Positions 15,028-38,329 are shown, counted from the first letter of the stretch. The stretch is DNA of 64,000 nucleotides from Desulfobacterales bacterium (GCA_041736435.1 JBGSTS010000020.1:119-64118), one strand, 5' to 3'. Translations and numbers: made by a program. Notes: generated by a model from the letters alone, not told the origin.

Positions 15028-15473
15028 ATCCGCCCCTGCGGCAGTCGCACTCCCAGAAGGACCACGAAGAGAATGTGGGTAAACGCCAGGGTCAGCGCCG
15101 AGGCGACAACCACCCGGCGCCAGCCCAGCGGCTCCACGCATCGAAACAGAAAAAGCAGGAGCAAAAAAGTGGCGGGAATGAATCCAATCACATTCCAGAG
15201 CAGCACGCCAACGAACAGGAACAGCATTGCAATGAATATTTTGAGCAGGTCGGCGCCTCGAAACCCCTTGCCATCGCCCTTTTCCGGGCCCGTCAGTAAC
15301 GCTTTAACGAGTGCAATGAGGCTCAAAGCCCCCAGGGTTGTAGCAGCCAGAAACGGCACGAAGCCCGGGCCCGGGCGGACAAACCCTCCGAAACCCAGGC
15401 GCCACGATTCCATTCCAACAGCGCAGGCGAACAGAATCCAGGCCGCATAGGCGATGGTGTAAGTTTTTCTCAT
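15006..15473 (-). CDS. tctB: Tripartite tricarboxylate transporter, small subunit
   Basis: 155-aa four-helix membrane protein lying between tctC and tctA. Confidence 0.8.
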   Translation of the reverse strand: MRKTYTIAYAAWILFACAVGMESWRLGFGGFVRPGPGFVPFLAATTLGALSLIALVKALLTGPEKGDGKGFRGADLLKIFIAMLFLFVGVLLWNVIGFIPATFLLLLFLFRCVEPLGWRRVVVASALTLAFTHILFVVLLGVRLPQGRIWTYFMN

Positions 15474-16442: not shown

Positions 16443-16701
16443 CTCCTTGGAAGTTTTTTTGCTCAGTAAGCGATATTGTTTTTATTGTCAAGGCAAGCGC
16501 TTGAACGGTGCTCACCCGGTTGAGAAATGTCAGCTGAGGCTGGTGGATCATGTTTTTCGGTCTGCGGCCCTAAACGGCATGCAGCATCGAGCGCCTCTCC
16601 CCAGGTACTATTCATGTGTTCAGTTGCCGGGCCATTGGTGGTATGAAGAACAAAAAAGGTGGTTCTATAGAAACGTTGCCGAGAGTCGTTTTTCCGGAGT
16701 T

Positions 16702-18147
16702 ATGTGCCCTAACCCAAACTATTTCAGATCAGCAGCGGCCAAGGAGGAGAGCTTGGATTTTAAGCCAGTGTCCGATTCACATCTTAAAGAACTTGCCGCA
16801 TTGGTGGCGGCAGACAGGTTTTCAACCGGAGAGTCGATCCGCGATTTGCATGCCAGAGATCAGTCCTCCCACGCGGCGTGCCGGCCCGAAGCCGTGATTT
16901 GGCCTCAGACGGCGGAAGAAGTGGCGGCGATTCTCAAGTATGCCGGAGTGCACCGCATTCCCATCACCGGCTGGGGGGCCGGTTCAAGCCTCGAAGGCAA
17001 CCCCATCCCGGTCTGCCGCGGGATCGTGCTCGACTTCGGCCGCATGAACCGGATCCTGACCCTCCGTGAAGAGGATTTTCAGGCGGACGTGGAGCCGGGG
17101 GTTGTTTACCAGGACCTGAACGAAAAGCTCAGGCACACCGGGCTCTTCTTCCCGCCGGACCCGGGCGCCCGGGCCACGTTGGGCGGAATGATCGCCAACA
17201 ACGCCAGCGGCACCCGCACGGTGCTCTACGGGTCCACCCGGGATTATGTCATGCGCCTGGTGGTGGCCCTGGCGAGCGGCGAGCTGATCGAACTGGGCAC
17301 CCGGGCCAGTAAAAGTTCCTCGGGCTACAGCCTGATCAATCTGTTCATCGGCTCCGAGGGCACCCTCGGCATCGTGGTCGAGGCGACCCTTCGGTTGGTG
17401 GGGTTTCCCGTGGAGTATTCCGCCGCCGTGGCAACCTTCCCATCCGTGGAGGCGGCGGCTCACACGGTTTACGACCTTAAGCGCTCGGGGCTCAACCCGG
17501 CAGCCCTCGAGCTGCTGGGGCCGGAGTGCATCGCCCTCATGAATCAGGAGCAGCAGCTCGGGCTCGACGTGGCGCCGACCCTTTTCATCGAATTCCATGG
17601 GACGACGACCAGCCAGCTGGCCGAGGTGCTGGATGCCGCCAAGGAGATTTGCGATGCCGGGGGCTGCGTGGAGTTTCGGCCGGGGCTCGGCCGCGCCGAG
17701 CGCGACCGGATTTTCAAAGCGCGCCACGCACTGGGCGAAATGATCCAGCACAACCACCCCGAGCACCGGATCCTGATCATGGACGTGGCCGTGCCCATCA
17801 CCGCCTATGCAGAGCTTTTGGCGTCTATGCGGGCCGAGGTCGAACCTCACGGGCTCATCCACTACACGCTCAGCCACGCCGGCAACGGAAACGTACATTT
17901 GAACATCGCCGGCCGCAAAGACGACCCCGAGGAGTGGGCCCTGGTGCAGCAGGTCTCCGCGCGGTTGGTGCTGAAGGCGATTTCCCTTGGCGGCACCGCC
18001 ACCGGCGAACACGGCGTGGGCCTGGGCAAGCGCAGCTACATGGTCAATCAGCACGGGGCGAGTCTGGCGTGGATGCGGCGCGTTAAAGAGCTCTTCGACC
18101 CGAACGGAATTCTCAACCCGGGAAAAATCTTCCCCGACGGAGAATGA
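16702..18147 (+). CDS. FAD-linked oxidase (GlcD-like)
   Basis: ...GWGAGSSLEGN...GGMIANNASGTRT...GGTATGEHGVGLGKR.... The start is uncertain. Options are the ATG at 16702 or an in-frame TTG at 16753 preceded by AAGGAGGAG. The ORF-track start at 16333 overlaps tctC and is unlikely. Confidence 0.85.
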   Translation: MCPNPNYFRSAAAKEESLDFKPVSDSHLKELAALVAADRFSTGESIRDLHARDQSSHAACRPEAVIWPQTAEEVAAILKYAGVHRIPITGWGAGSSLEGNPIPVCRGIVLDFGRMNRILTLREEDFQADVEPGVVYQDLNEKLRHTGLFFPPDPGARATLGGMIANNASGTRTVLYGSTRDYVMRLVVALASGELIELGTRASKSSSGYSLINLFIGSEGTLGIVVEATLRLVGFPVEYSAAVATFPSVEAAAHTVYDLKRSGLNPAALELLGPECIALMNQEQQLGLDVAPTLFIEFHGTTTSQLAEVLDAAKEICDAGGCVEFRPGLGRAERDRIFKARHALGEMIQHNHPEHRILIMDVAVPITAYAELLASMRAEVEPHGLIHYTLSHAGNGNVHLNIAGRKDDPEEWALVQQVSARLVLKAISLGGTATGEHGVGLGKRSYMVNQHGASLAWMRRVKELFDPNGILNPGKIFPDGE

Positions 18148-18151
18148 TCTT

Positions 18152-19483
18152 ATGACGCACGCCCTGCTTCGAAATCTCACGGCATCCAACCCCCGCATGG
18201 TTCGGGGCGAAGGCATCTATCTATTCGACGCCGAGGGCCGGCGCTACATCGACGGCGCCAGCGGCTCATCCCTGGTGTGCAACATCGGCCACGGGGTCAA
18301 AGAGATCGCTGCGGTCATCTCCTCCCAGGCCGCCGAGCTCGCCTGCAACCCGTTCCACTGCTCCCACACAAAGGTCTACGAAGAGATGGCCGAACGACTG
18401 ATCCGCCTGGCCCCGAAAGGCTTTGCCAAGGTCTTCGGCGTCAGCTCCGGGTCGGAGGCCGTCGAAAACGCCGTCAAGTTCGGCCGCCAGTACCACGTCG
18501 CCCGCGGCCTTCCCTCGAAGCAGCTCGTGATCAGCCGCTGGCAGTCCTACCATGGTAACACCTTGGGAGCGCTTGCCTGCTCAGGCTACACCAGCCGCCG
18601 CCGCAAGCATGCACCGCTTTTGAAGGATGCGGTGCACATCCCACCGGCCTTCTGCTATCGCTGCACTTTCGAAAAGACGTATCCTGCCTGCGAGTTGAAG
18701 TGCGCGCGCGCCCTGGAAAGCGCCATCCTGCAGGAGGGACCGGAAAACGTGTCGGCCTTCATCGCCGAGCCGGTGGTCGGCGCGGCCCTGGGCGGAGCGC
18801 CGGCGCCGCCGGGTTATTTCGAGAGGGTCCGGGAGATCTGCTCCAGGCACGATGTCCTTTTCATCGCGGACGAAGTCATGTGCGGGCTGGGGCGCACCGG
18901 TGCCAACTTTGCAATCGACCACTGGTCGGTCGTGCCCGACCTGATCGCCACCGGCAAGGGCATGGGCAGCGGCTACTATCCCATGGGGGCCTGCCTGGTA
19001 TCGGAAAAGATAGCGGCTGCCATGCAGGCGCACGGCGCCGTCTTCGAAGGCGTGCACACCTGCTGTGGGCACCTGCTGGGAAGCCGCGTGGCGGCGGCGG
19101 TTCTGGACTATGTGAACCGCAAGGAGCTGATCATGAATTCAAAGCAACAGGGAGCGCTCCTGCTCCAGGGCTTGAGCGCGATTAAGGGCCGCCGGCCCTC
19201 GGTCGGGGACGTGAGGGGCCTGGGGTTGATGTGCGGCGTCGAGTTCGTCAAGGACAAAGGCACCCACGAGCCGTTCCCGGCCGGGATGAGGGTGGCCGAG
19301 CGGGTCATGGACGCCTGCCTGGAGCGAGGGCTGATCGTTTTTCCAGGCCACGGGAGCGTCGACGGTGTGGCCGGCGACCACCTTCTTCTCGGCCCGCCCC
19401 TGGTGATTCATGCGAGTCAGATACAGGAGATGATCTCGATCCTGGAGGATGGAATCGCAGCAGTGGAACGGGAAATCCTATAA
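18152..19483 (+). CDS. Class-III (omega-type) aminotransferase
   Basis: MTHALLRNLTASNPRMVRGEGIYLFDAEGRRYIDGASG...SGSEAVENAVK...DEVMCGLGRTG...ATGKGMGSGYYPMGA. The ATG is 5 nt after the oxidase stop. Confidence 0.9.
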   Translation: MTHALLRNLTASNPRMVRGEGIYLFDAEGRRYIDGASGSSLVCNIGHGVKEIAAVISSQAAELACNPFHCSHTKVYEEMAERLIRLAPKGFAKVFGVSSGSEAVENAVKFGRQYHVARGLPSKQLVISRWQSYHGNTLGALACSGYTSRRRKHAPLLKDAVHIPPAFCYRCTFEKTYPACELKCARALESAILQEGPENVSAFIAEPVVGAALGGAPAPPGYFERVREICSRHDVLFIADEVMCGLGRTGANFAIDHWSVVPDLIATGKGMGSGYYPMGACLVSEKIAAAMQAHGAVFEGVHTCCGHLLGSRVAAAVLDYVNRKELIMNSKQQGALLLQGLSAIKGRRPSVGDVRGLGLMCGVEFVKDKGTHEPFPAGMRVAERVMDACLERGLIVFPGHGSVDGVAGDHLLLGPPLVIHASQIQEMISILEDGIAAVEREIL

Positions 19484-19612
19484 GGTTGAAAACGGCGCCT
19501 CAGGTATTGGCCGGGCTGCGGGCGTGATCGTTGAAAAGGCCCGAAAGAGAATTATGTTTCAGCCCTAACAGATTGATCCTGCCTGACAATCTCCTCATCA
19601 AAGGGAGCCGCC

Positions 19613-22600
19613 ATGAATCGCCTGAAGCGTATTCTCCTAAGCAAAACAGTCATCATTGGTGTTTCTGCCATTGTCGTTTACACCCTGGCCGGTTTTTTTC
19701 TGGTGCCGTTCCTGGTGCGGCATTATACGCCCAAGATCGTGCAGGCAGAGCTCAAGCGGCAGGCGTCGATCGGCGAGGTGCGTTTCAACCCCTATGCTTT
19801 CACCTTCGAGGCGAACGATTTCCGCCTGGACGAACCGGGCGGGGAGCCGATCGCCGGTTTCAAGCGGCTGTTCATCGATTTCGAATTGAAAAGCCTGTTC
19901 AACTGGGCGTGGACCTTCCGCGAGGTCGTCATCGACACACTTCAAGTGAACGCGGTCATCGCCTCCGATGGCGTTCTCAATTTGGCGCAGCTGGCGCCGG
20001 CCACGGACGCCCCTCCGCCGCCGGAAACGGATGAGCCGCCGCCCAGGCTGATCATCGAGCAGGTCTCGATCGAACAGGGCCGGGTCGATTTCACCGACCG
20101 GCGCCTGTCCGAACCAGCCGCCGTCACCCTCGCCCCGCTTAACCTGAAGATCGACAACCTGACCACGCTCCCTGACCAGAAGGGGCCTAAAACCATCACC
20201 GCGACCAGCGGTGACGGGGAGACCCTGCGCTGGACCGGCTACGTCAGCCTGAACCCGGTGGCGACCCAGGGGACCCTGAAACTTGAGAAGATCCGTACGG
20301 CCACTCTCTGGAAGTTCATGCGGGACGAGGTCAACCTGGAGCCGCCGCTCGGAACCCTGAGTTTGACTGCCGACTACTCCGTGAACATGGGCGGCACCGA
20401 ACTGCAGGTGAACCTCTCCAACCTCGCCGCCGAGCTTAGGGGCGTTGTAGTGAGACTGGCCGGGGCTGAAGCGGCTTTTCTGGAGCTGCCCGACGTGAGA
20501 ATCAGCGAGGTGGGCTTTGATCTCGGCGACCGGCAGGCCGGCATCGGCAAGATAAAGGTTGCCGGTGGACGTGCGCGGCTTGCGGTGGACGAGACGGGCG
20601 CACTCGATCTGGCGCGCATCGTTAAGGCCTCCGGCGCATCGGTGCCCGCCGGCACTGCCTCAAAGCCCTGGAGGGTCAGTCTGGCAGCGCTCGACTTAGA
20701 CCGGTTTGCCCTGGGATACCGGGATGCGAGCCGGGACCCTGGGCTTAGCGCCGGCATCGATGGCGTCGCGTTGCAGCTTAAGGCCGAAGCGGAGGCCGGG
20801 GGGGATTCAACACGGGTAGCGGTGAATGATATCGTCTTAGAACTCTCCGGCCTGCGGGCGGGGCAGACCAACGCAGCGCAACCGGCGGTTCGGATCGAAA
20901 AGGTGGCCCTTGCGGGCGGCGCCTACGATTTGACCCCTAACACCCTATCGGTCGATACGCTCTCCATCGAAGGCGGCGCGATCGACCTGAAGCGGGAGAC
21001 CGACGGGAGCATCAACCTGGTTCTGCTGGCCGCTCCGCCCGAAAAAGGGGCTGTCGCCCGGGAGGCCACGGAGGCGGCCGCCGAAGGCCATCCGTTCCGG
21101 TTTCTGGTCAAAACCGTTGCCGTGTCGGGCCTGGAGACCGTGTTCTCCGATCTATCCGTAAAGCCCGGAGAACCGATCCTTACCCTCGAAGAGATGGCCG
21201 TGGTTCTGAACAACGTGGACGGCACGTCCCCCATGAAGTTCGAGGCCGACCTTAAAATCCGCGAGGGAGGGCAGATCAAAGCCGCCGGCACCGTCGACCC
21301 GTCCCTGCCGTCGGTGGAATCCGAGGTGCAGGTGGCGGACCTGGGCCTGAAGGTGTTTCAGCCCTATGTCGGCCAAGCGGCGGAGGTGATTCTCACCTCG
21401 GGTGCTTTCTCCACCCGCGGAAGCCTGCGCCACGGCGTGAAAGCAGCGGAGGCCGCAACGCTTTACCAGGGCGGTTTCAGGATCGACAATCTGCGGCTCA
21501 TCGAACCCGGCGCCAAAGAGACCCTGGTCGGCTGGAAAACGGTCCAGACCGATCAGTTGAAGCTCCAGCTCGATCCGAACGGGCTCGATATCGGTGATCT
21601 GCGGGTGGTGCAGCCCGTCGGCAAGTTTATCATCGAGAAAAACGGGTCGCTCAACCTGGCCAACGTCATCAAGCCCGGCCCCGAGCCGAAACAACCCGCC
21701 CCGGCGGCCGGCGCAGCGGATCCCTTTCCCTACCGCGTGCGCCGTGTGCTCGTCAGCGACGGGCGCGTCGACTTCGCGGACCTGAGCCTCATCACCCCCT
21801 TCGGCAGCAAAATCCATGAGCTCAAAGGCAACGTGGCCGGGATCTCCTCCGCTAAAAACGCCCGTGCCCAGGTCAAACTCGACGGCCGGGTGGACGAATA
21901 CGGGACGGCCCGGGTCGACGGGGAGTTGAATACCTCGGACCCAAAGGCCTTCACCGACGTCGGCCTGACCTTCCGCAACGTTGAGATGTCAAATCTTACC
22001 CCCTACTCGGGCAAGTTCGCCGGCCGCAAGATCGACTCCGGCAAACTGACGGTCGATCTCAAATACAAGATCGACAAGAGCCGGCTGGCGGGCGAAAACC
22101 AGATCGTGGTGGAGCGGTTGAAGCTGGGGGAAAAAGTGGAAAGCCCCGAAGCAGCGGACCTGCCGCTGGACCTCGCCATCGCCCTGATGGAGGATTCCAA
22201 CGGGGTGATCGATCTCGGGCTGCCGGTCAGCGGCAACCTGGACGCCCCCGAGTTCAGCTTCGGCGCGCTGATTTGGAAAGCCCTCGGCAATCTGCTCACC
22301 AAGATCGTGACGAGCCCCTTCCGGGCCCTGGGGGCGCTGCTGCCGGGCGGGAGCGAAGAGGACTTTAAAAGCGTGGTTTTCGAGCCCGGCCGTTCCGATG
22401 TTCCGCCGCCGGAGAAGGAAAAACTGAACAAGCTGGCGGGCGCGCTTCAGAAGCGGCCCCAGCTGAAGCTCACCGTTCAGGGCCGCTACAATCCGGAAAC
22501 CGACCTGGCGGAGCTGCGCAGCTCCAGCCTGCGGCGTGCCCTGGCCGCGCGCCAAGGGATAAAACTCGAGCCAGGCGAGGACCCCGGACCCGCTGACTAC

Positions 22601-28955: not shown

Positions 28956-29366
28956 CTATTGGCGCGCGATACTTTTTTTCATGTAATCATCCACGGCCGA
29001 ATGCAGGGTTTCGGCCGCGAGTTCGGCACAGTGCAGGGTCTCTTTAGGCAGTTCGCCGATAACCTTCTGAATCGCATCGGCGTCGATCTCCAGCAGCGCT
29101 TGAGGCGTTTTGCCCTTGGCAAGATCGGCCGCCGCCATGGCGCAGTTTAAACTGGTCGTGCAGCCGTTTGTCCAGTGGGTGGATTTGACGACCTGGTCAT
29201 CTTCAAATTGAAGGCAGATCTCCATCGTGTCCCCGCACCGGCCGGTGATGCGCGCCTTGCCGTCCGGGGCCTCCAGGATCGGGTTCAAGCGGTAGTGGGC
29301 CCAGAACCATATCCCGACGATGGCCATCAAGACGCCGATACCGCCTATCAGTGCCAACACATCCAT
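28956..29366 (-). CDS. NifU-N/IscU-like Fe-S scaffold domain protein with an N-terminal transmembrane helix
   Basis: The TM helix is MDVLALIGGIGVLMAIVGIWFWAH. The IscU-like cysteines are GRCGD...NGCTTS...LHCAEL. It starts 7 nt after the rnfB stop. Confidence 0.7.
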   Translation of the reverse strand: MDVLALIGGIGVLMAIVGIWFWAHYRLNPILEAPDGKARITGRCGDTMEICLQFEDDQVVKSTHWTNGCTTSLNCAMAAADLAKGKTPQALLEIDADAIQKVIGELPKETLHCAELAAETLHSAVDDYMKKSIARQ

Positions 29367-29372
29367 TTCCTT

Positions 29373-30257
29373 CTATAATGCCAGGGCTTCCTGCTCCGTG
29401 ACCCCATCGGGGCTTTTCAGAAATGGATGCTCCTGGAAAGGGCGAATGACGTGGATCATGAAGCAGGCCTCCAGGCAGGCTTCCCGGCAGGAATCCCCGT
29501 ACGCGAGGCACTGCGTGTGGTCCACCCGGATGACGCCGTCGACGAGGGCGATGGCCCCGGCCGGGCAGGCCCTGACGCAGGACAAACAGTGAAGGCAGCC
29601 TGAGGAGCAGATTCGGTGGGTCTCTTTGCCGGTGTCTTTGCTGCTGCAGCGCACCACGACCCGGCCGCTGCGGGGAATGAGGCTGAACAGTCCCTTGGGG
29701 CAGGCGCCGGCGCACAGGCCGCATCCGGTGCACCTCTCTTCGTCGATGACCGGGAAATGATGGACCATGGTGATAGCGCCGAAGGGGCAGGCGCGCTCAC
29801 AGTCGCCAAAGCCGACGCAGCCGAATTGGCAGTCTGTGGGGCCGCCAAAGGCCAGGTTGGCGGCGGAGCAGCTCCCATAGCCGACATACTCGTATTTTTC
29901 ATAATTGTTTCTCAGGCACCTGGCGCAGTGGACTACCGCCAAGGCCCCTTCGATTGATCCCAGCTGCTTGCCGGTGATCTTGGCCACCGCCTCGGCCACG
30001 GGCGCTTTTCCGGGGAAACACAGTGCGGGGGAAACATCCGGGTCGGTGACCACCGCCTCGGCATAGGCTTCGCACCCGGCGAAGCCGCAGGCGCCTCATT
30101 GCCCGCCGGCCAGGAGCGCCTGAACCGCCTCGACCTTCGGGTTGACCTCGACCGCGAATTTGTGGGCGGCCAACCCCAGCCCGATGCCGAATAAAACGCC
30201 AATACACCCCAGAACAGCCAGCCCCCCCAGGGCCAAATTAATGTAGGAGAGATCCAT
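29373..30257 (-). CDS. rnfB: Rnf complex subunit B, read through an in-frame TGA (codon 54, plus-strand 30096-30098) as candidate selenocysteine
   Basis: From the ATG at 30257 I read MDLSYINLALGGLAVLGCIGVLFGIGLGLAAHKFAVEVNPKVEAVQALLAGGQ-[TGA]-GACGFAGCEAYAEAVVTDPDVSPALCFPG.... The TGA sits at the first Cys of the RnfB CxxCxxxxC...C N-terminal Fe-S domain. It is in the same frame as ORF 29373..30053. Poly-ferredoxin motifs follow downstream. Confidence 0.65.
30066..30086 (-). other. Candidate bacterial SECIS-like hairpin 9 nt 3' of the rnfB UGA
   Basis: On the minus strand this reads GGCUUCG-CCGGGUG-CGAAGCC, a perfect 7-bp stem with a 7-nt loop containing GGU. Confidence 0.45.
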
Positions 30258-30275
30258 CGGTATCCTCGCAACCGC

Positions 30276-31271
30276 CTAAAACAGAGACATGCCTGAAAAC
30301 CCCATGAAGGAGAGCGCAAAAAGGCCGGCCACGATAAAGGCGATGGGCAGGCCCCGGTAGGCTTCCGGGATTTTGGCGAACTCGAGCCGCTCGCGGACGG
30401 ACGACATCAAAAACAGCGCGATCAGAAATCCAAGGCCGGCCCCTGACGCCAGCATCAGGCTCTCCGCAAGATTGTATTCGTTCTGAGCCAGGGTCAGCGG
30501 AACCGCAATGATGATGCAGTTGGCAATCACCAGTACCAGGTAGACCCCGAAGGCCTTGAACAGTTTGGGGTTGACCTTGCGCATGATGGTGTCGACTCCC
30601 TGCACGGTCAACGAGACCAAGCCGATGAAGACCACGATTTGCAGGTAGTCCAGCCGATAGGGCTTCAGGACAAACTGGTAGAGAAACCACGAGAGCATGG
30701 AGGCAAACACAATCACGATGGTGAAGGTGATCCCCATGCCGACGGCGGTCGATTTTTTGCGCGAGGTGCCGAAAAACACGCACAGCCCTAAATATTTCGA
30801 AAAAACGAAATTCTGGATGATCATGGCGCCGATCAAAATGGAGAGCAACGTCCCGAAATAGGGCTGTTTCACCGTGAGTCGCGCCGTGCCGAGCGATTTG
30901 CCGTCGGAAAGGATCTCCTTGAGAATGACGGTGTGGCTGTTCTGGCGATTCAGGGCATCCGTCAGCCGCAGGGTCAGGGTTTTTTTGTTCCGGCTGAGCT
31001 CAGCCGCTGCGATCTCCGCTAAAATGTCAGGATCGGTCAGTTCATTGACCGAAAAGTTGGCAATGCGTTGAGCCCAGGCATCATCCACCGGCCCGGCGAA
31101 CGCGATGGTGATTTCATGGCTGTCCCCGAAAACGGCGCTTTGAACGAAAGGATGCTCTGTTTTGCACCCCGTTACTAGCAATAGCCCCATGCAAAGCCAG
31201 ATGGCGCCGAAACGCCGGAGGCGGGCGACGGCAAGGCCGGCCTGCGGGCGCTTATCCCAACCGTTGCGCAT
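30276..31271 (-). CDS. rnfA: Rnf complex subunit A fused to a ~140-aa N-terminal lipoprotein-signal plus Ig-like extension
   Basis: The C-terminal ~190 aa is collinear with RnfA (NFVFSKYLGLCVFFGTSRK...ANCIIIAVPL...RERLEFAKIPEAYRGLPIAFIVAGLFALSFMGFSG). The N-terminus has a lipobox LLLVTG|C. It is followed by ...ITIAFAGPVDDAWAQRIANFSVNE...KTLTLRL...HTVILKEILSDGKSL. Confidence 0.8.
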   Translation of the reverse strand: MRNGWDKRPQAGLAVARLRRFGAIWLCMGLLLVTGCKTEHPFVQSAVFGDSHEITIAFAGPVDDAWAQRIANFSVNELTDPDILAEIAAAELSRNKKTLTLRLTDALNRQNSHTVILKEILSDGKSLGTARLTVKQPYFGTLLSILIGAMIIQNFVFSKYLGLCVFFGTSRKKSTAVGMGITFTIVIVFASMLSWFLYQFVLKPYRLDYLQIVVFIGLVSLTVQGVDTIMRKVNPKLFKAFGVYLVLVIANCIIIAVPLTLAQNEYNLAESLMLASGAGLGFLIALFLMSSVRERLEFAKIPEAYRGLPIAFIVAGLFALSFMGFSGMSLF

Positions 31272-31893
31272 CCACCCCCCTTTTTTTGCGGCGTGCGCTG
31301 ATCGCTTCCGTGTAATTGAAGATGGCCATCATGAACCCGACTGTGAAAAACCCGGCAGCCGGCAGCACAAAAAACAGCATCGGACGAAACCCGACGACCT
31401 TGACGCCGAGAAAGGTCCCCATGCCCAAAATTTCACGAATCGTCCCCAGGGTCGTCATACCGAATAAAAACCCGACCCCCATCCCCATTCCGTCCCAAAA
31501 GGAAGAGGCCAAATCGTGCTTGCACGCAAACACCTCCAGGCGCATGGTGATGATGGCAAACGCCACGATCAGCCTGACGAAGATGCCCATGGCCTTGTAG
31601 GCCTCCGGAACATAGGCCGCCAGGATGAGATCGATCACCGTGACCCAGGTGGCGATCGTCAGGGTGTAGGTCGGGATGCGGATGCGCGGGTGGATGTGAT
31701 TCTTGATCAGCGAGATGGTGCAGCTCGAGAACACCTGGACAAAAAGCACCGCCACCCCCAGCAGCAGCCCGTTCATCACGCTGGTGGTGAGCCCCACGGC
31801 CGGGCACATGCTGAGGGCCAGGCGGAATATGGGGTTTTCGTTCAAGACGCCGTTCAAGAACAGCTGTTTATGTGTCTTGGGTGTTGTCAGCAC
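31252..31893 (-). CDS. rnfE: Rnf complex subunit E
   Basis: 213 aa with ...NPIFRLALSMCPAVGLTTSVMNG.... It is a six-helix RnfE/NqrD-type protein. Confidence 0.9.
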   Translation of the reverse strand: MLTTPKTHKQLFLNGVLNENPIFRLALSMCPAVGLTTSVMNGLLLGVAVLFVQVFSSCTISLIKNHIHPRIRIPTYTLTIATWVTVIDLILAAYVPEAYKAMGIFVRLIVAFAIITMRLEVFACKHDLASSFWDGMGMGVGFLFGMTTLGTIREILGMGTFLGVKVVGFRPMLFFVLPAAGFFTVGFMMAIFNYTEAISARRKKRGVDAQRLG

Positions 31894-31956
31894 GTATCAA
31901 TTTCCTCTTGTGCCCCGAAGGCCCCGCATGTCATCGCAATCCCCGGCGTTGATCGG

Positions 31957-32865
31957 TTAAAACGCAACTTGGATATTGTTTTCGCGGGCCGCCTGCTCCA
32001 GGAGCGTGAGGCGGTGGACTGAATTGCGCACGATGCGTTTAACGCCGTTGGCCACCGCGCTGCTGGAAATCGTCGCTCCGCTGATGGCATGAATCTCCTC
32101 GTTTTGATACTTCGTTCTCAGGGCGTTTGCGTCCCCTTCGGACAAGGCCCCCTTCCCCCCGATTCCGGATTCCAGATAGTGCTTGTGTTCCTCGGACAAC
32201 GGGGTCCGGGTGACGGACAGGGTCTTGACGGTGTCGATCGCCTTGTTCCTGAACTGATTTTTAAAATACGCTTTTTCGATTTCGCCGCCCAGCCCGGGGT
32301 CCTCCTCATGCGCGGTGATTTCCACCCCGCGAACACTGAAATCCGGGTTCAGCGCCACCATGAGATGGATCGCATTCTTGTATCCGGGGAATTTTCCCGG
32401 GATGATGTAGGCCAGGCGCTTGCCGTCCAGCTCCGCAACGGTTACGGCCTCGGCATCGTGAAAGGCGGTGCGCGGGCCCAACAGCGCGGCAATGGCCCTG
32501 CCGCGATCCTTTTCGTCGGACACCCTCTCCGGTGAAATCTTCAGTTGATGGCGGTCTACCAACCGACCGTTCAGGTCGATGATCCAGAATTCATGTTCGG
32601 TTTTGCCCGCGGCCGGGACCAGGTAACCGGACCGGGGTCCCGCCTCATCCTCGACGATGTAGCGGTGAAGGGTGTGCAGTCTCAGATTCGGCGGCATCGG
32701 GCGGGACCGGCTGTATCCCAGCAAGCCGGCCATGGTCTGCTGAACATTCAGAAGTTCATTGCGCTTTTTGGCCTTGGCCGTTGCCATGAACACCCCGCCC
32801 ATCACCCCCCCGGCGATCAGGCAGGAAACGGTCAGGGCCACCGCGATTTTGAAAATCTCCTTCAT
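31957..32865 (-). CDS. rnfG: Rnf complex subunit G (FMN-binding), unusually long
   Basis: The start is MKEIFKIAVAL at 32865, an ATGA overlap with the rnfD stop. It has a TM anchor and the C-terminal FMN attachment motif HAISGATISS. At 302 aa it is longer than the ~200 aa I consider typical. Confidence 0.85.
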   Translation of the reverse strand: MKEIFKIAVALTVSCLIAGGVMGGVFMATAKAKKRNELLNVQQTMAGLLGYSRSRPMPPNLRLHTLHRYIVEDEAGPRSGYLVPAAGKTEHEFWIIDLNGRLVDRHQLKISPERVSDEKDRGRAIAALLGPRTAFHDAEAVTVAELDGKRLAYIIPGKFPGYKNAIHLMVALNPDFSVRGVEITAHEEDPGLGGEIEKAYFKNQFRNKAIDTVKTLSVTRTPLSEEHKHYLESGIGGKGALSEGDANALRTKYQNEEIHAISGATISSSAVANGVKRIVRNSVHRLTLLEQAARENNIQVAF

Positions 32866-33872
32866 GCAGCGCCCTCGGAGAAGCGCTTCGGCCGGAACCA
32901 TTGATCCAGGGCCGGAGTCAAAGGGTTCATCAGCAGGATGGCATAACAGATCCCCTCCGGATACCCCCCCTTCAGTCGGATGAGGACCGTCAGAGCCCCG
33001 ATTCCAAAACCAAAAAGGACCTGGCCGGTTCTCTGGCTGGGAGAGGTGACATAGTCGGTGGCCATGAAGAAGGCGCCCAGGATCACCCCGCCGGAGAGCA
33101 CGGCCAGAAGCGGGTTGCCCGAGAACAGCTGTTCGCCGCCGAAGACCCAGGTTAAGAAACCGGTGGAGGCGATGACCGACACCGGGATATGCCAGGTGAT
33201 ATAATGCTTATAAACTAAAAAGATCCCCCCGAGTAAAAGCAGCAGGGCTGATGTCTCCCCGATGCAGCCGGGTCGCAGCCCGATAAAAAAATCGGTGTAA
33301 ACGGTCGACAGCGACCCGAATTTTTCGATAAAGGCCTTCATCCCGTAATGTTTCAGCACATGGAGCGGGGTGGCGGCCGAGACGGCGTCGATCCCGGACC
33401 CCAGGTATTTGAACAGGGAGGCGCCCCGCAGGGGTTCCAACCAGGCGGTGGTCATGACGACCGGATAGGTGGCCACCAGAAAGGCCCGGCCGATCAGTGC
33501 CGGGTTGAAAATGTTGAAGCCCAGCCCGCCCATGAGCACTTTGGTCACAAAGATGGCCATGACGGCTCCCGTGACGGGGGTCCAGTAGGGGACGCCCGGC
33601 GGGATGATGTAGGCCAAAAGCAGACCGGTGATCACCGCGCTGCCGTCATTGATCTTGACCGGCCGCTGTAACAGTTTGTTGGAGATCGCCTCGGTGGCGA
33701 CACAGGCGCCGACGCTGATCAGCGTGATGATCAAGGTTTGAAGGCCGAAGACGAAGACCGATACCATCAACGGCGGGGTCAGGCATGCCACCACGGTCCA
33801 CATGATGGTCGCCACCGTCGTGTTCTGCTTGATGTGCGGTGAAACAGATACGATCAGGTCTGCTTGGGCCAT
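32862..33872 (-). CDS. rnfD: Rnf complex subunit D
   Basis: 336-aa polytopic NqrB/RnfD-type protein with ...GAFFMATDYVTSP.... Confidence 0.9.
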   Translation of the reverse strand: MAQADLIVSVSPHIKQNTTVATIMWTVVACLTPPLMVSVFVFGLQTLIITLISVGACVATEAISNKLLQRPVKINDGSAVITGLLLAYIIPPGVPYWTPVTGAVMAIFVTKVLMGGLGFNIFNPALIGRAFLVATYPVVMTTAWLEPLRGASLFKYLGSGIDAVSAATPLHVLKHYGMKAFIEKFGSLSTVYTDFFIGLRPGCIGETSALLLLLGGIFLVYKHYITWHIPVSVIASTGFLTWVFGGEQLFSGNPLLAVLSGGVILGAFFMATDYVTSPSQRTGQVLFGFGIGALTVLIRLKGGYPEGICYAILLMNPLTPALDQWFRPKRFSEGAA

Positions 33873-35320
33873 TTCCGCTTTTCTTTTTTCTTTTCGGCTT
33901 CACGAATCCGTATCCGGGCGAGCCGGATAAACTGGACCAGCGGGCGCTTGGACGGACAGACATAGGCGCAGCTGCCGCACTCGAAGCAATCGTCCACCAG
34001 CCCGAACTGGGCGGTTTCGGCCCCGCGGCCCGCCTCGACATAGATGCCGATGTTGTTGGGCTCGAGCCCCATGGGACAGGCCTGCAGGCAAAATCCGCAG
34101 CGGATGCAGGGGCCATAGTCCTGTGCGTCGATCTCGTCGCGGGTCAAAAACAGGACCCCGGCCGTGGTTTTGGTGATGGGTATTTCCAGGCTGGAGACGG
34201 CAAAGCCCATCATCGGCCCCCCCGCTACCACCTTGGCAAGGCCTGGGGTCGTGCCGCCCAGGTATGAAACGATGTCGGACAGATGGGTGCCGATCGGAAC
34301 GAGCAAGTTGGCCGGCCGGGCGATCCCCTTGCCGGAAACGGTGATGACGCGTTCGTAAAAAGGTTTGCGCCGGACGACGGCATCATAAATGGTTTTGCTA
34401 GTGTAGACGTTCTGAACCATGACGCCGATGCTCGAGGAACGTTTTCCGGAGGGCCGCACACGGCCGGTGACGCTCTGGATGATCTGGTCGGCCGAGCCCT
34501 GAGGGTATTTGACGCGCAGCGGGGCGACTTTGATGGAAAACGGCTCTTCGGCCCGGTTGCACCCGATGGCCTCGTTCAATGCGGTGATGGCATCCGGCTT
34601 GTTGTTTTCCACCCCGATGACGCAAGCGCGGATACCCAGAATGGTCAGGATGATCTTGGCTCCTTCAACCACCTCCTGGGGTTGCTCCACCATGATGCGA
34701 TGATCGCAGGTCAGATACGGCTCGCACTCCGCCCCGTTCAGAATCAAGGTCTCCAGCGGGACTTCCGGGGAGACGTTCAGCTTGGCGTGGGCTGGAAAGC
34801 CGGCGCCGCCCAGGCCCACGATGCCGGCGTCCCTGATCCGGTCGAGCAGCTCCTGCCTGGAAAATTGCCGCCACTCCTCCGCGGCGAGGGTGGGGGACAC
34901 GGCCTCCGGGTCGCGGGAGATGACGATGGCCGTCGCCTTGCCGGTCATCGGGTGAAGTGCGTCGACCACCCCCTCCACGGTGCCGCCGATGCTGGCGTGC
35001 AGGGCGGCGCCCAGCGAGTCTTCGATCGACCCGATCCGGTCGCCGGCTCTGACCCGGGGTTTACGGGTGACCAGCTGCCGATAGATGCGCCCCGGGTGCC
35101 GGCCGAAAAGGAGGGCGTCGTCCGGCGGGGTCTCCGGTGGTTTCTGCACCGCCACGTGACAGGCCGCGCCGACATGTTGTTTCAAAAACAGGCACACCCG
35201 GGGCGGCGGCGGCAACGTCTCCACCGAAAGGCCGGCGGTCGACTCCTTCAGCGCAGCGGGATGTACTCCGCCCAGCGGAAAGGTCGCCGGCGTGGCAACC
35301 GCCCTGCCGTCAGTGGCCAT
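33854..35320 (-). CDS. rnfC: Rnf complex subunit C
   Basis: It has IVGLGGAGFPAH (NADH/FMN site), LNGAECEPYLTCD and two ferredoxin motifs (CIRCGFCLQACP / CFECGSCAYVCP). Confidence 0.9.
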   Translation of the reverse strand: MATDGRAVATPATFPLGGVHPAALKESTAGLSVETLPPPPRVCLFLKQHVGAACHVAVQKPPETPPDDALLFGRHPGRIYRQLVTRKPRVRAGDRIGSIEDSLGAALHASIGGTVEGVVDALHPMTGKATAIVISRDPEAVSPTLAAEEWRQFSRQELLDRIRDAGIVGLGGAGFPAHAKLNVSPEVPLETLILNGAECEPYLTCDHRIMVEQPQEVVEGAKIILTILGIRACVIGVENNKPDAITALNEAIGCNRAEEPFSIKVAPLRVKYPQGSADQIIQSVTGRVRPSGKRSSSIGVMVQNVYTSKTIYDAVVRRKPFYERVITVSGKGIARPANLLVPIGTHLSDIVSYLGGTTPGLAKVVAGGPMMGFAVSSLEIPITKTTAGVLFLTRDEIDAQDYGPCIRCGFCLQACPMGLEPNNIGIYVEAGRGAETAQFGLVDDCFECGSCAYVCPSKRPLVQFIRLARIRIREAEKKKEKRKWPKQT

Positions 35321-35831
35321 ATCGCGTCCGGCTCCTTCCGAGCAGGCTCAGCCCGTACTCTTCTCGGCTTTTCTGGGACAGCGCGGCCGGCTCGCCGAAC
35401 TGCAAAGCATCCGTGGGACACACGGCCACGCAGGCCGGTTCGAGGCCCTCGTCTATCCGGTCCATGCACATGTTGCACTTCATGGCCTTGCCGGCGGTGG
35501 CATCCCACTGGGGGATGTGCCAGGGGCACGCCAGGATGCAGGACTTGCACCCCACGCACAATTCCCGCAGGATGTAGACCAGCCCGTCCTTGTCTCGTTT
35601 GCGAATGGCGTTGACCGGGCATGCGTTCAGGCACCAGGCGTCCTCACAGTGGAAACAGGGGATGAACAGGGAAGACATCATGGGTTTCCCATTCATGAGC
35701 TTCGGCCCCAACACCACGATTTTTCCCAGGGTGGCCCCGGCCGGGACTTGGTTTTTGACCTTGCAGGCGATTTCGCAGGCGTGGCAGGCGACGCATTTGG
35801 CCGGATCCGTATAAATCAGGTAATCTCCCAT
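35310..35831 (-). CDS. Four-cluster 4Fe-4S ferredoxin subunit (DmsB/PsrB-type)
   Basis: CVACHACEIACK, CFHCEDAWCLNACP, CVGCKSCILACP and CNMCMDRIDEGLEPACVAVCP. Its 3' end overlaps the rnfC start by 11 nt. Confidence 0.85.
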   Translation of the reverse strand: MGDYLIYTDPAKCVACHACEIACKVKNQVPAGATLGKIVVLGPKLMNGKPMMSSLFIPCFHCEDAWCLNACPVNAIRKRDKDGLVYILRELCVGCKSCILACPWHIPQWDATAGKAMKCNMCMDRIDEGLEPACVAVCPTDALQFGEPAALSQKSREEYGLSLLGRSRTRYGH

Positions 35832-35852
35832 TTTTTCTCTCTCCCTCCGAAA

Positions 35853-37943
35853 TCAAACCCGTTTCACCGTGACCAAGGTGTGGTCAAACGCCGGACTTCC
35901 GCCCACCGGGTCCACCGTCGCCTCCTGGAGCATCGCATCGGCCACCCCGCGCTGATAACTCCTTCTGGATTCAGGCTCCTGGTGTCCGAACCCGTGAAGC
36001 ATGAAAACGGCCTCCGGCTGAATCATGTTCGTCACGAAGGCTTTCAGCCGCCCCGATCCTGCCGCCGAGGCGATTTCGACTAAATCCATGTTTTTGATCC
36101 CCAGCGCGGCGGCCCGCTCGGAATTGATCCAGAGGACATTCTCCGGCACGAGTTCGTTCAGGTAGGTGTTGTTCTGGGTCATCACGTTGGTGTGCGCAAC
36201 ACAGCGGCCGACGATTAGCCTGAATCGGTCTTGGGGCGTCTCCAGGGGCTCATACGGCGGAAAGGATTGGAAGCTATGCTTTTCCAATAGGCTGGACGCA
36301 AACTCGATTTTGCCGGAAGGGGTTTTGAACTGGATCCCGTTTTCGCGATCCCACCAGATGGGCTTGTCGCTGAGGGAGACAAACCCCTTGGCTTCGAAAT
36401 CCCCGGCCTGGAGTCCTACGTCCGCCAGTTGATACTTCCAAATGTCTTCGATGGTCTCGTAGGGGAAATAGTCTCCTGCGCCCAGGCGCTCGGCCAGTTG
36501 CTTCAGGATCCACCACATGGGTTTGGTGTCGAATCGGGGCTTGATGCAGGCGATCCTGCGGTTAATGGCCGGTTTCAGGCCGGCCGCCATCTGCAAGGGG
36601 TCCGAGCGTTCCAGGAAAAACGATTCCGGCAGAATTACATCCGCCCGCGAGGTGGTTCCGCCGAAATTGATGTCGCAGGAGACGATCAGCTCCAGCTTTT
36701 CAAGCGCACGCAGGGTCTGTTGGTAATCGCACAGCGAAAAGAGCGGGTCGTAACGGAAAGCAAAAAGAACCTTGAGCGGGTAGGGGTCTTCATTCAGCAC
36801 CGCCGATGGGAACATGGCGCCCACGCCGTGGGCCGGGTCGACGATGGGGAACTTCTCCTGCCCGCAGCCGTCAAACTTGCGGCCGTCCGCCATTTTGGGG
36901 AACTGCTGGTCTGAAAATTTGCGGATGCCGGCCGCCAGCCCCGCATCCTTGGGGCCTTTTTTGATGAACACCCCGCCCTTGGCCTCGATGCTGCCCATCA
37001 AGGCGTTCAGAATCATGATGGAGCGCCTAAAATAGATTTCATTGGGGTGGCCCGACCCCCGGTACCCATAGTGAAAAACAACGGCGGGTTTGGCCTCGTT
37101 GATGTCCTTGGCCAGCTGAACGATCTCCTCAGCGGGGATTCCCGTTTCCGCCTCGGCCCACTCCGGGGTGAACTCCTTGACAAAGTTGCAGAGCTTGTCG
37201 AAACCCTCCACCCAGCGGTCCACGTATTTAACATCATAGAAGTGGCGTTCCCTGATGATTACGTGCATCAGGGCGTAATTCAGCGCCAAGTCCGTCCCGG
37301 GCCGGATCATCATATATCGGCTCGATTTGGCGGCCGTGATGCTCACCCGCGGGTCGATGGTGGTGAGCTTCGTCCCTTGCGCCATGGCGTCGAGCAGCGC
37401 ATTGACGGCCTTGACTTCCATGCTCTCGAAAATGTTCCGCCCATAGAGGACGACGTGCCGCGCATTGCCCCAGTCGGCGCTGATCTGAGCGTCGGTGTAC
37501 CCGGTCAGCGAGCGGCAGGCGGTGTTGATGGATCCTTTGCAGACGGTGTCGTGTGAAAAATAATTCGGCGACCCGATCGCTTTCATGAACGTCTTGGACA
37601 AGTCCGTCGCCAGGTTCACGCGTTCGCAGTACACCGCGCTCTTGCTGCCGTATTTTTCAAAAATCTCCCGGCAGCGGTCCGCCGTATAATCCAGGGCAGC
37701 ATCCCAGCTGGCGGTTTTCCACTGTCCGGACCCGCGGGCCCCGGACCGGATCAGGGGCCCATGGACCCGCTGCGGATCATTGACCCAGCCGACAGCGGCC
37801 GCGCCCTTCGGACACACGCCGCCTTTCATGGCCGGAACATGCGGGTTGCCGCCGATGCTGACAACCTGGTCGTCCTCGACCACCACGGCTATGGGGCATC
37901 TGACGGAACACATGAAACACAACGTGTAAACCGTTTTTTTCAT
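35853..37943 (-). CDS. Molybdopterin (Mo/W-bisPGD) oxidoreductase catalytic subunit of the PsrA/PhsA/SoeA-like group, with no signal peptide
   Basis: The N-terminal LCFMCSVRCP...CPKG is the MopB [4Fe-4S] motif at residues 9-16, so there is no room for a Tat RRxFLK leader. The candidate metal-ligand Cys is in FSHDTVCKGS. 696 aa. Confidence 0.85.
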   Translation of the reverse strand: MKKTVYTLCFMCSVRCPIAVVVEDDQVVSIGGNPHVPAMKGGVCPKGAAAVGWVNDPQRVHGPLIRSGARGSGQWKTASWDAALDYTADRCREIFEKYGSKSAVYCERVNLATDLSKTFMKAIGSPNYFSHDTVCKGSINTACRSLTGYTDAQISADWGNARHVVLYGRNIFESMEVKAVNALLDAMAQGTKLTTIDPRVSITAAKSSRYMMIRPGTDLALNYALMHVIIRERHFYDVKYVDRWVEGFDKLCNFVKEFTPEWAEAETGIPAEEIVQLAKDINEAKPAVVFHYGYRGSGHPNEIYFRRSIMILNALMGSIEAKGGVFIKKGPKDAGLAAGIRKFSDQQFPKMADGRKFDGCGQEKFPIVDPAHGVGAMFPSAVLNEDPYPLKVLFAFRYDPLFSLCDYQQTLRALEKLELIVSCDINFGGTTSRADVILPESFFLERSDPLQMAAGLKPAINRRIACIKPRFDTKPMWWILKQLAERLGAGDYFPYETIEDIWKYQLADVGLQAGDFEAKGFVSLSDKPIWWDRENGIQFKTPSGKIEFASSLLEKHSFQSFPPYEPLETPQDRFRLIVGRCVAHTNVMTQNNTYLNELVPENVLWINSERAAALGIKNMDLVEIASAAGSGRLKAFVTNMIQPEAVFMLHGFGHQEPESRRSYQRGVADAMLQEATVDPVGGSPAFDHTLVTVKRV

Positions 37944-38051: not shown

Positions 38052-38181
38052 GCGGACTTTGCATCGCCGAAATCAATTCCGTCTCAGTTTAGCAAGCCCT
38101 ATGCCAGACGGTAAAAAATAATAATAATAAATATTAGCAAATAGTTAGAATAGTATCGACCATCTTTTTTGGGTAGTTTTC

Positions 38182-38196
38182 ATTGCGATTTGCAAT
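38182..38196. promoter_or_regulatory. Palindrome ATTGC-N5-GCAAT (copy 1) in the AT-rich region upstream of the Mo-oxidoreductase/rnf operon
   Basis: ATTGCGATTTGCAAT. Confidence 0.4.
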
Positions 38197-38314
38197 ATTT
38201 TATCGATTACTTACAGGTATAATGCACGAATAATGCATCCCGACGCCAGCGGCGGGGACGCGTTATTTCAAAGCATTTCTTTAAAAACGAGGAAGTGTCG
38301 GGCAGGTTAAAAGC

Positions 38315-38329
38315 ATTGCGGATTGCAAT
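38315..38329. promoter_or_regulatory. Palindrome ATTGC-N5-GCAAT (copy 2)
   Basis: ATTGCGGATTGCAAT, extendable to CATTGCGGATTGCAATG. It lies 133 bp from copy 1. Confidence 0.4.

Follow-up and report, generated by a model that had tools for sequence, protein, structure and literature searches.

A candidate partnership between an anchor-less PsrA/PhsA-type molybdoenzyme and the Rnf complex in a clade of Desulfobacterales

We analyzed a stretch of 64,000 nucleotides from a Desulfobacterales bacterium (GCA_041736435.1 JBGSTS010000020.1:119-64118; hereafter the window, with positions counted from its first letter), in which the genes for a molybdenum- or tungsten-dependent oxidoreductase (MopB) and a four-cluster ferredoxin subunit (FeS) directly precede the genes of an Rnf complex. 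The open reading frame (ORF) table and translations place nine co-oriented genes on the minus strand between positions 28956 and 37943:

35853..37943, minus strand: catalytic subunit (MopB) of the Mo/W-bis(pyranopterin guanine dinucleotide) type, 696 amino acids, PsrA/PhsA-type, without a twin-arginine translocation (Tat) leader
35310..35831, minus strand: four-[4Fe-4S] ferredoxin subunit (FeS), 173 amino acids, PsrB/DmsB-type; Fer4_11
33854..35320, minus strand: rnfC, 488 amino acids, NADH- and flavin mononucleotide (FMN)-binding subunit; TIGR01945
32862..33872, minus strand: rnfD, 336 amino acids; PF03116, 366 bits
31957..32865, minus strand: rnfG, 302 amino acids; PF04205
31252..31893, minus strand: rnfE, 213 amino acids; PF02508 (Pfam scan only)
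30276..31271, minus strand: rnfA, 331 amino acids, with a lipoprotein-type signal and a domain of ~100 amino acids before the RnfA core
29373..30257, minus strand: rnfB, 294 amino acids, residue 54 encoded by TGA; NF005503
28956..29366, minus strand: nifU-like gene, last of the cluster, 136 amino acids, membrane-anchored NifU/IscU-like; PF01592

The nine genes are tightly packed. When the junctions were recomputed, 21 nt separated MopB from FeS, the FeS stop overlapped the rnfC start by 11 nt, and overlaps of 19, 4 (ATGA) and 20 nt were found for rnfC/rnfD, rnfD/rnfG and rnfE/rnfA, respectively. Gaps of 6 nt and 18 nt separate rnfB from the nifU-like gene and rnfA from rnfB, respectively, the latter valid only if an in-frame TGA in rnfB is read through. 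A first-pass annotation of the sequence had given all of these figures, and each proved exact; absent from it were the TGA read-through that a single rnfB gene requires and the 63-nt gap between rnfG and rnfE, which has a GTG start. A consensus scan detected sigma-70-like promoters and terminator-like sites at none of the junctions, including positions 35310–35320, where that annotation had looked to an internal promoter or terminator as a sign against a common unit; overall, such sites were about as frequent as expected from shuffled sequence. The nine genes probably constitute a single operon, for which sigma-54 regulation is likewise probable.

The catalytic subunit combines the Pfam domains PF04879, PF00384 and PF01568. 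Its Fe-S motif begins almost immediately, with cysteines at residues 9, 12 and 16 as described before, and these as well as Cys44 are invariant in 20 homologues. The PhsA equivalog model NF012032 matches only from model position 41 onward, hence the Tat leader region is absent, and the N-terminus (MKKTVYTLCFMC) is kept family-wide from Met1, as is the length of ~695 amino acids. The earlier prediction of a leaderless enzyme facing the cytoplasm is borne out by these features. The nearest solved structure is Thermus thermophilus PsrA (2vpw_A, E-value 6e-110, residues 3–686 aligned), which scored 372 bits as compared to 188 bits for the next match in the PDB; acetylene hydratase and formate dehydrogenases are far behind. 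Since PsrA is the nearest relative and the score against the PhsA model (550.8 bits) falls below the cut-off of 694, we treated MopB as a PsrA/PhsA-type enzyme that is not an equivalog of any characterized member. MopB is apparently catalytically intact: the cofactor-binding domains are kept, Cys135 aligns with the Mo ligand of PsrA, Cys173, and an invariant Arg295 sits one position off PsrA Arg332.

A search of 5.8 billion proteins returned 2172 matches to MopB at E ≤ 1e-30. The best 120 of these 2172 are nearly all ~695 amino acids long and at least ~57% identical to the window protein, and come from Desulfobacterota and from sulfate reducers of the Firmicutes; sources among the matches listed include Desulfofundulus, Thermodesulforhabdus, Syntrophobacterales, Desulfobaccales and Desulfobacterales. 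The substrate is most likely an inorganic sulfur compound, for example thiosulfate or polysulfide, on account of the family placement, the TauE permeases near loci of a sister clade (see below), and the proteomics of anchor-less PhsAB-like enzymes. This assignment is the weakest step of our reading. For complex iron-sulfur molybdoenzymes (CISM), the substrate is not assignable from sequence alone (PMC12998232).

The partner subunit has 16 cysteines arranged in four motifs (C13/16/19/23, C59/62/67/71, C92/95/98/102 and C119/122/134/138). Together with its matches to Fer4_11 and to the DmsB model (135.9 bits as compared to a cut-off of 214.1), they agree with its original description as a four-cluster protein of the PsrB/DmsB type. 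GTDB was scanned with each species represented by a single genome; this yielded 457 relatives, of which the best 80 loci were kept with 10-kb flanks, and the FeS gene lies directly after MopB in nearly all 80. No membrane anchor of the NrfD/PsrC/DmsC type was found in the operon or, by a Pfam sweep of the other large ORFs, elsewhere in the 64-kb window, as the first-pass annotation had maintained. At the 80 related loci, no cluster of anchor-like genes recurred among those neighbor genes that were scanned.

All six Rnf subunit genes are present in the order CDGEAB, and each product matches Rnf families of Pfam and NCBIfam (for RnfE, of Pfam). RnfC scored 458.9 bits against TIGR01945 (cut-off 245.95); it contains a Complex1_51K domain (NuoF-type, 173.9 bits), an SLBB domain and a Fer4 domain at residues 400–458, and its NADH/FMN motif GLGGAGFP is conserved. 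With a cysteine put in for the TGA, RnfB reached 342 bits against NF005503 (cut-off 252). RnfA (195.9 bits, cut-off 229.3) and RnfG (66.5 bits against TIGR01947, cut-off 102) scored below their family thresholds, probably owing to extra domains. The model covers only residues 142–328 of RnfA, whose core spans approximately residues 141–331. Ahead of the core, an N-terminal extension (window 30852–31271) consists of a lipobox of the form L-x-G/S-G-C, here LLLVTGC, followed by the ~100-amino-acid domain, which has no Pfam match. Because the topology of RnfA is N-out, this extra domain is predicted to be periplasmic. RnfG is 302 amino acids long as compared to ~190–210 amino acids in the family models, and its FMN_bind match is stretched over 118 residues, pointing to an insertion inside the flavin domain. 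The complex is predicted to act as a ferredoxin:NAD+ oxidoreductase that translocates Na+ or H+. The product of the last gene of the cluster carries a NifU_N domain behind an N-terminal transmembrane helix. Some loci have a gene for an ApbE flavin transferase after rnfB and before the nifU-like gene.

The nine window proteins were then compared with the 80 loci by tblastn, which separated the loci cleanly into two clades. Clade A (L001–L018) belongs to the Desulfobacterales, with MopB 68–86% identical to that of the window, and includes Desulfatibacillum, Desulfonema magnum, Desulfatirhabdiaceae, Desulfosarcina, Desulfatitalea and Desulfatiglandales. MopB and FeS are followed by rnf genes in 15 of the 18 loci, as far as the contigs reach; many of the loci are contigs of metagenomes or metagenome-assembled genomes (MAGs), and gene calling for neighbors outside the window was mechanical. 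Complete loci extend through rnfB, mostly with the nifU-like gene as well, and 10 further metagenome contigs show the same arrangement. At the D. magnum locus (NZ_CP061800.1), an inserted island encoding an ATPase and a large helicase-like protein follows rnfC (14515–20775 of that locus), and no other rnf gene was found within 10 kb; at another locus (L011), the contig is too short to tell. The 19 clade-A sequences, including that of the window, are monophyletic and nested inside the family in a neighbor-joining tree (all trees were of this kind and carry no support values). The linkage, for which the first-pass annotation had considered that it might be unique to this genome, is therefore kept in a monophyletic clade of Desulfobacterales.

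By contrast, none of the loci of clade B (L019–L080; MopB 57–61% and FeS 43–52% identical to the window proteins) has rnf genes within 10 kb. This clade includes Desulfofundulus, Thermodesulforhabdus, Syntrophobacterales and Desulfobaccales. Directly after FeS, 46 of 62 clade-B loci, and 0 of 18 clade-A loci, encode a GltD-like flavoprotein of ~724 amino acids with Fer4_20 and Pyr_redox_2 domains (GltD/AegA/NfnB-type) and C-terminal ferredoxin motifs. Some clade-B loci add to it, or carry instead, genes for NuoE-, NuoF- and NuoG-N-terminal-like proteins, which none of the 18 clade-A loci has, and a CBS protein; Pfam confirmed the NuoG-N-terminal-like assignment, and the NuoE-like, NuoF-like and CBS proteins were assigned by eye. 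In both clades, the gene slot after FeS thus appears to be occupied by an NAD(P)H-oxidizing flavoprotein, which is RnfC, itself a NuoF-type protein, in clade A and a GltD-like or NuoF-like protein in clade B. Upstream of the clade-B MopB gene there is usually a TauE permease gene and a gene for a small membrane protein. Since one MAG holds both forms (L001 and L059), the two clades are true paralogues. The possibility had been raised earlier that MopB falls in a well-characterized clade with a separate membrane partner encoded elsewhere; it does not, and the modules used in its sister clade, itself uncharacterized as far as we found, are soluble NAD(P)H flavoproteins. On one contig of Desulfacinum hydrothermale, ~22 kb separate a clade-B cluster (L036) from an unlinked rnf cluster (L107). 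At one locus from Candidatus Desulfacyla euxinica (L054, 7266–9849), a second, more distant MopB-FeS pair, 47% identical, stands just 5' of the clade-B MopB-FeS-GltD genes, so that the module is duplicated in tandem.

The linkage was also approached from the Rnf side. An alignment of the unusual RnfA served as the query against metagenome contigs, and the nine window proteins were mapped on the 80 loci returned, 29 of which were informative, having 3 kb or more of sequence 5' of rnfC. MopB and FeS precede rnfC in 10 of these 29, and all 10 also have the nifU-like gene. The other 19 lack MopB, and the nifU-like gene occurs in none of them. In 13 of the 19 unlinked loci (L088, L095, L097 and L107 among them), the gene directly 5' of rnfC is ribF, encoding flavin adenine dinucleotide (FAD) synthetase/riboflavin kinase; this ribF-rnfC neighborhood is a flavin-supply association. 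We evaluated the lipoprotein-type extension of RnfA, the long RnfG and the TGA-containing rnfB as marks of MopB linkage and rejected all three, which are also found in unlinked ribF-rnf clusters: the RnfA extension is kept in all related loci, linked and unlinked, and RnfG has the same length in both. These are features of a Rnf subtype of the Desulfobacterota.

Other changes in Rnf do follow the linkage, foremost an insertion in RnfC:

35075..35152, minus strand: insertion in the N-terminal barrel-sandwich domain of RnfC, approximately residues 57–82, AVQKPPETPPDDALLFGRHPGRIYRQ

The insertion is 26–31 amino acids long, has the conserved motif LF..H.G..(Y/F)..LV, and is present in 27 of 27 MopB-linked RnfC proteins (a set in which some loci are duplicate records of one contig) versus 0 of 19 unlinked RnfC proteins of the same subtype. 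It was scored as the spacing between flanking motifs, which is 55–60 residues in linked and 28–29 residues in unlinked proteins. Linked RnfC proteins also have a Lys-rich C-terminal tail, and RnfB ends in ...QEALAL in 14 of 15 linked versus 0 of 16 unlinked loci. The exception is L093, which lies on the same contig as L006, the locus with the earliest-branching clade-A MopB. L093 has MopB-FeS and the RnfC insertion, and its RnfC groups with the unlinked sequences once the insertion columns are removed. This is suggestive of an insertion that tracks the linkage rather than phylogeny. Identity to the window protein drops from 65–78% in linked to 50–64% in unlinked loci for RnfC and from 59–85% to 53–60% for RnfB, and differs little between the two groups for RnfD, RnfE and RnfA.

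On two metagenome contigs, Ga0164318_10001685 (L134, 2816–5629) and Ga0164310_10004470 (L135), a different Tat-less MopB of 937 amino acids, 29% identical, is encoded directly 5' of rnfC of the same Rnf subtype. It has a TorD/NarJ-type chaperone domain fused to its N-terminus, and these loci have neither a separate FeS gene nor the RnfC insertion. They represent a second, independent association of a MopB protein with Rnf.

Two candidate elements involved in decoding lie within rnfB:

30096..30098, minus strand: in-frame TGA, candidate selenocysteine codon, at the first Cys position of the N-terminal Fe-S motif of RnfB, LAGGQ-U-GACGFAGC
30066..30086, minus strand: hairpin GGCTTCGC-CGGGU-GCGAAGCC, candidate bacterial selenocysteine insertion sequence (SECIS), after a 9-nt spacer from the TGA

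The gene is a single ORF only if the TGA is read through; otherwise, the longest ORF starts at 30053. Across relatives, the motif reads LAGGQ-U-GxCGFxGC. Among genome loci, the codon at this position is TGA in seven (L004, L006, L009, L010, L012, L015 and L016) and TGC in three, and among 72 metagenome loci it is TGA in 63, including most of L085–L164, and TGC or TGT in nine. The hairpin is conserved at the nucleotide level in TGA-bearing loci; this conservation is its support, given that the z-score of its fold is not significant in the GC-rich context. Neither selA/B/D genes nor a gene for tRNA-Sec were found in the 64-kb window. Selenocysteine in RnfB looks widespread across this Rnf subtype of the Desulfobacterota, whether or not MopB is linked. 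The in-frame TGA leads gene callers to mis-call rnfB as truncated. We found no description of a selenocysteine-containing RnfB in the literature searched; Peng 2016 lists a selenocysteine-containing 'RnfC' family, and RnfB is absent from the main text of that study. The TGA-encoded RnfB is of separate interest for selenoprotein and Fe-S biochemistry.

Upstream of MopB, three elements may contribute to regulation:

38091..38106, minus strand: sigma-54 (-24/-12)-like promoter TGGCATAGGGCTTGCT, ~148 nt 5' of the MopB ATG; a consensus match only
38314..38329, minus strand: palindrome ATTGCAATCCGCAATG, candidate site for an enhancer-binding protein, function inferred
38181..38196, minus strand: second copy of the palindrome, ATTGCAAATCGCAATG, same pattern as 38314..38329

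The palindrome pattern ATTGCAANNNGCAATG (ATTGCAA-N3-GCAATG) occurs twice in the 64 kb, both times upstream of the operon, where 0.08 occurrences would be expected by chance. The two copies are 75 and 208 nt further upstream than the sigma-54-like element. Conservation of the palindromes was not found in related loci. A sigma-54-like element lies at most 500 nt 5' of MopB in 25 of the 80 family loci, and genes for NtrC-type activators and histidine kinases, recognized by eye, adjoin many loci of the family. In the window, the cluster is flanked by PhoU, PhoH/PIN and topoisomerase genes; no activator gene was found there, nor any of the neighbors typical of the sister clade (TauE, small membrane protein, NtrC-type regulator and histidine kinase).

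How does this arrangement compare with known systems? PsrABC and PhsABC (T. thermophilus 2vpw and Salmonella) share with it the cysteine motif of the FS0 cluster, the cysteine ligand and a four-cluster, PsrB-type partner. Unlike them, the operon described here has no Tat leader and no NrfD-type quinol-oxidizing anchor, rnfCDGEAB comes next, and its proteins score below the PhsA and DmsB equivalog cut-offs. Matching by description are the PhsAB-like enzymes of the literature, such as DITHS69_2027/2028 of Dissulfuribacter thermophilus and PhsA-1/PhsB-1 of Desulfolithobacter dissulfuricans GF1, which likewise comprise proteins of ~700 and ~170 amino acids with neither a Tat leader nor a C subunit. 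Their spread over Desulfobacterota, Clostridia and Nitrospirota is similar to that of the family studied here. These anchor-less, Tat-less enzymes have been discussed before, with their electron partner and membrane association stated to be unknown, and were more abundant during thiosulfate disproportionation (PMC13490349, PMC9751629). The papers do not mention Rnf. In GF1, PhsA-1 (GF1_30490, 701 amino acids) and PhsB-1 (GF1_30500, 168 amino acids) are followed in locus-tag order by NuoA, NuoB, NuoC and NuoD (GF1_30510–30540) rather than by Rnf proteins (PMC9751629 supplement). As a lead, the consecutive tags, on which the paper does not comment, suggest a PhsAB-like module placed before a Nuo cluster; no Nuo-linked variant of MopB-FeS was found among the 80 genome loci. 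Papers on related organisms describe Nuo clusters without NuoEFG whose electron donor is given as unknown.

The sister clade has the same MopB-FeS order, continued by an NAD(P)H-oxidizing flavoprotein (AegA/NfnB/SudA-type and/or NuoE/F/G-N-like). It differs from the window in the soluble nature of this partner, in the 5' TauE and small membrane protein genes, and in the absence of Rnf within 10 kb. The canonical Rnf complexes of Acetobacterium woodii, Clostridium and Azotobacter share with the window the six subunits, the CDGEAB order and the GLGGAGFP motif. Relative to these, the MopB-linked forms have the RnfC insertion, the Lys-rich tail and the QEALAL tail of RnfB; the RnfA lipoprotein domain, the long RnfG and the TGA-encoded RnfB are further differences that unlinked relatives also display, and MopB-FeS upstream and the nifU-like gene downstream complete the list. 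More generally, rnf operons carry lineage-specific modules for electron entry, for example the multihaem cytochrome gene that precedes rnf in Desulfovibrio and Methanosarcina. The claim of the first-pass annotation that no characterized precedent exists stands for Rnf, as neither a MopB-FeS-rnf operon nor the RnfC insertion is described in the literature we searched. It does not stand for the architecture, to which the formate hydrogenlyase of Escherichia coli is a characterized analogue: there, the Tat-less MopB protein FdhF and the four-cluster protein HycB sit on the ion-translocating Hyc complex, and no quinone is involved. Here, the membrane module is Rnf instead of a complex-I-like hydrogenase, and the enzyme is of the PsrA type instead of a formate dehydrogenase. 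Rnf, PsrAB/PhsAB and anchor-less PhsAB-like enzymes are all known; the MopB-FeS-rnf operon is new as far as we found.

Collectively, we give a probability of about 50% to a reading in which Rnf, probably via RnfC, serves the anchor-less PhsAB-like enzyme as a dedicated partner for electron transfer and energy coupling. Rnf had been proposed at the outset as the membrane and energy-coupling module of this enzyme. That proposal, which we still infer, gained support from the RnfC insertion (27/27 versus 0/19) and from the swap of the module after FeS. It needs one qualification: the Rnf did not arise specially for this enzyme, as the same subtype also occurs without MopB, with ribF being the 5' neighbor in 13 of 19 unlinked loci.

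If Rnf is the partner, the MopB-FeS dimer would dock on its cytoplasmic face, with RnfC as the likeliest site and a possible contribution from the RnfB tail. Rnf would then stand in both for the missing PsrC/PhsC quinol-oxidizing anchor and for the soluble NAD(P)H module that the sister clade uses. Electrons would pass from NADH (at RnfC) and/or reduced ferredoxin (at RnfB) through the four Fe-S clusters to the Mo/W site, and two directions of coupling can be envisaged. Ferredoxin electrons may reach RnfC by way of the ion-pumping path and continue from there to the Mo site, such that a Na+ or H+ gradient would be made provided that the acceptor is at or above the potential of NAD+. Alternatively, the ion gradient may be consumed and electrons from NADH pushed to a low-potential acceptor such as thiosulfate. 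With an E0' of ~-400 mV for the thiosulfate/(sulfite + sulfide) couple, and with Salmonella PhsABC reportedly driven by the proton-motive force, this second direction is attractive. The NuoEF and GltD modules of clade B could serve the same purpose through flavin-based bifurcation.

A wider version of this proposal, which we advance tentatively and regard as doubtful in its entirety, makes Rnf a quinone-independent coupling site with three ports: one for ferredoxin at RnfB, one for NADH at RnfC, and one for a sulfur compound, where MopB-FeS would sit on the RnfC insertion. Such a supercomplex would either conserve energy while ferredoxin drives the reduction of a sulfur compound or spend the ion gradient on the low-potential cleavage of thiosulfate, its RnfB would hold a selenocysteine-ligated Fe-S cluster, and Rnf would be one of three interchangeable plugs for anchor-less PhsAB-like enzymes, the others being Nuo lacking NuoEFG and soluble NAD(P)H flavoprotein modules that are possibly bifurcating.

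Several observations weigh against a dedicated partnership between Rnf and the PhsAB-like enzyme. Because all linked loci go back to one origin, 27 versus 0 does not amount to 27 separate events, and the insertion in RnfC may have arisen once, together with the linkage. One clade-A locus (L007) has MopB-FeS and no rnf within 10 kb. The Rnf subtype occurs alone in 19 of the 29 informative loci and, as most relatives have it without MopB, Rnf here could be the ordinary ferredoxin:NAD+ oxidoreductase of the cell. As to the substrate, the PhsA score is below its cut-off, PsrA His145 aligns with Arg108 of MopB, and no TauE or sulfur-metabolism neighbors were found in the window. Some of these points would be expected under looser coupling, in which a soluble MopB-FeS uses or makes free reduced ferredoxin or NADH and is co-transcribed with rnf to rebalance the carrier pool with no complex being formed. 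The sister clade, which works with soluble partners, speaks for this possibility, as do the generic nature of the Rnf subtype, usually alone behind ribF, the retention of MopB-FeS without rnf in L007, and FeS itself, in which we found clade-specific substitutions only and no large insertion or deletion particular to clade A. On the other hand, looser coupling leaves unexplained the ~28-amino-acid RnfC insertion, the RnfB tail and the membrane-anchored nifU-like gene confined to linked loci, and clade A loses the soluble NAD(P)H module exactly where rnfC takes the gene slot. We consider this alternative possible, if on the unlikely side.

A single origin of the linkage would also fit a mere accident of gene order, in which a MopB-FeS cassette was inserted between the promoter and a housekeeping rnf cluster in one ancestor and inherited without a functional tie; the Rnf complex is complete and canonical-looking, and operons of unrelated genes do exist. 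However, the linkage is kept, with translational overlap, down to 68% MopB identity in MAGs labelled Desulfatibacillum, Desulfonema, Desulfosarcina and Desulfatitalea, the changes in RnfC, RnfB and the nifU-like gene co-occur with it, a second and unrelated Tat-less MopB has been recruited 5' of rnfC (L134 and L135), and an NAD(P)H-oxidizing module occupies the same gene slot in the sister clade. An accident of this kind is therefore very improbable. The chemistry is a different matter. MopB may act on another substrate (sulfite in the oxidative direction, tetrathionate or trithionate, arsenate or selenite, or an organic compound) or may be a non-catalytic module like QrcB. The sub-cut-off PhsA score, the replacement of His145 by Arg108, the acetylene hydratase and formate dehydrogenases next in the structural matches, and the caution about CISM enzymes cited above are all compatible with this. 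Nevertheless, PsrA is the best structural relative by a wide margin (372 versus 188 bits) and TauE permeases flank the sister clade, so we regard a departure from sulfur-compound chemistry as unlikely. The non-catalytic option is disfavored further, as Cys135 is invariant in 20 sequences at ~60% identity, along with the FS0 cysteines and the two cofactor-binding domains.

Altogether, the operon is a conserved candidate for a new Rnf partnership, drawn wholly from comparative genomics. Many sulfate reducers and sulfur disproportionators possess PhsAB-like molybdoenzymes that lack both the anchor and the Tat leader, and for the question of their partner our analysis offers a candidate, testable answer, namely Rnf, encoded in the same operon, in one clade of Desulfobacterales. 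The RnfC insertion likely marks the docking site and, if the partnership is confirmed, the insertion together with the nifU-like gene would serve as a sequence marker for annotating such systems. Confirmation would also make this the first Rnf, as far as we found, with a dedicated terminal oxidoreductase module, and would reveal a quinone-free coupling of sulfur-compound reduction to an ion gradient.

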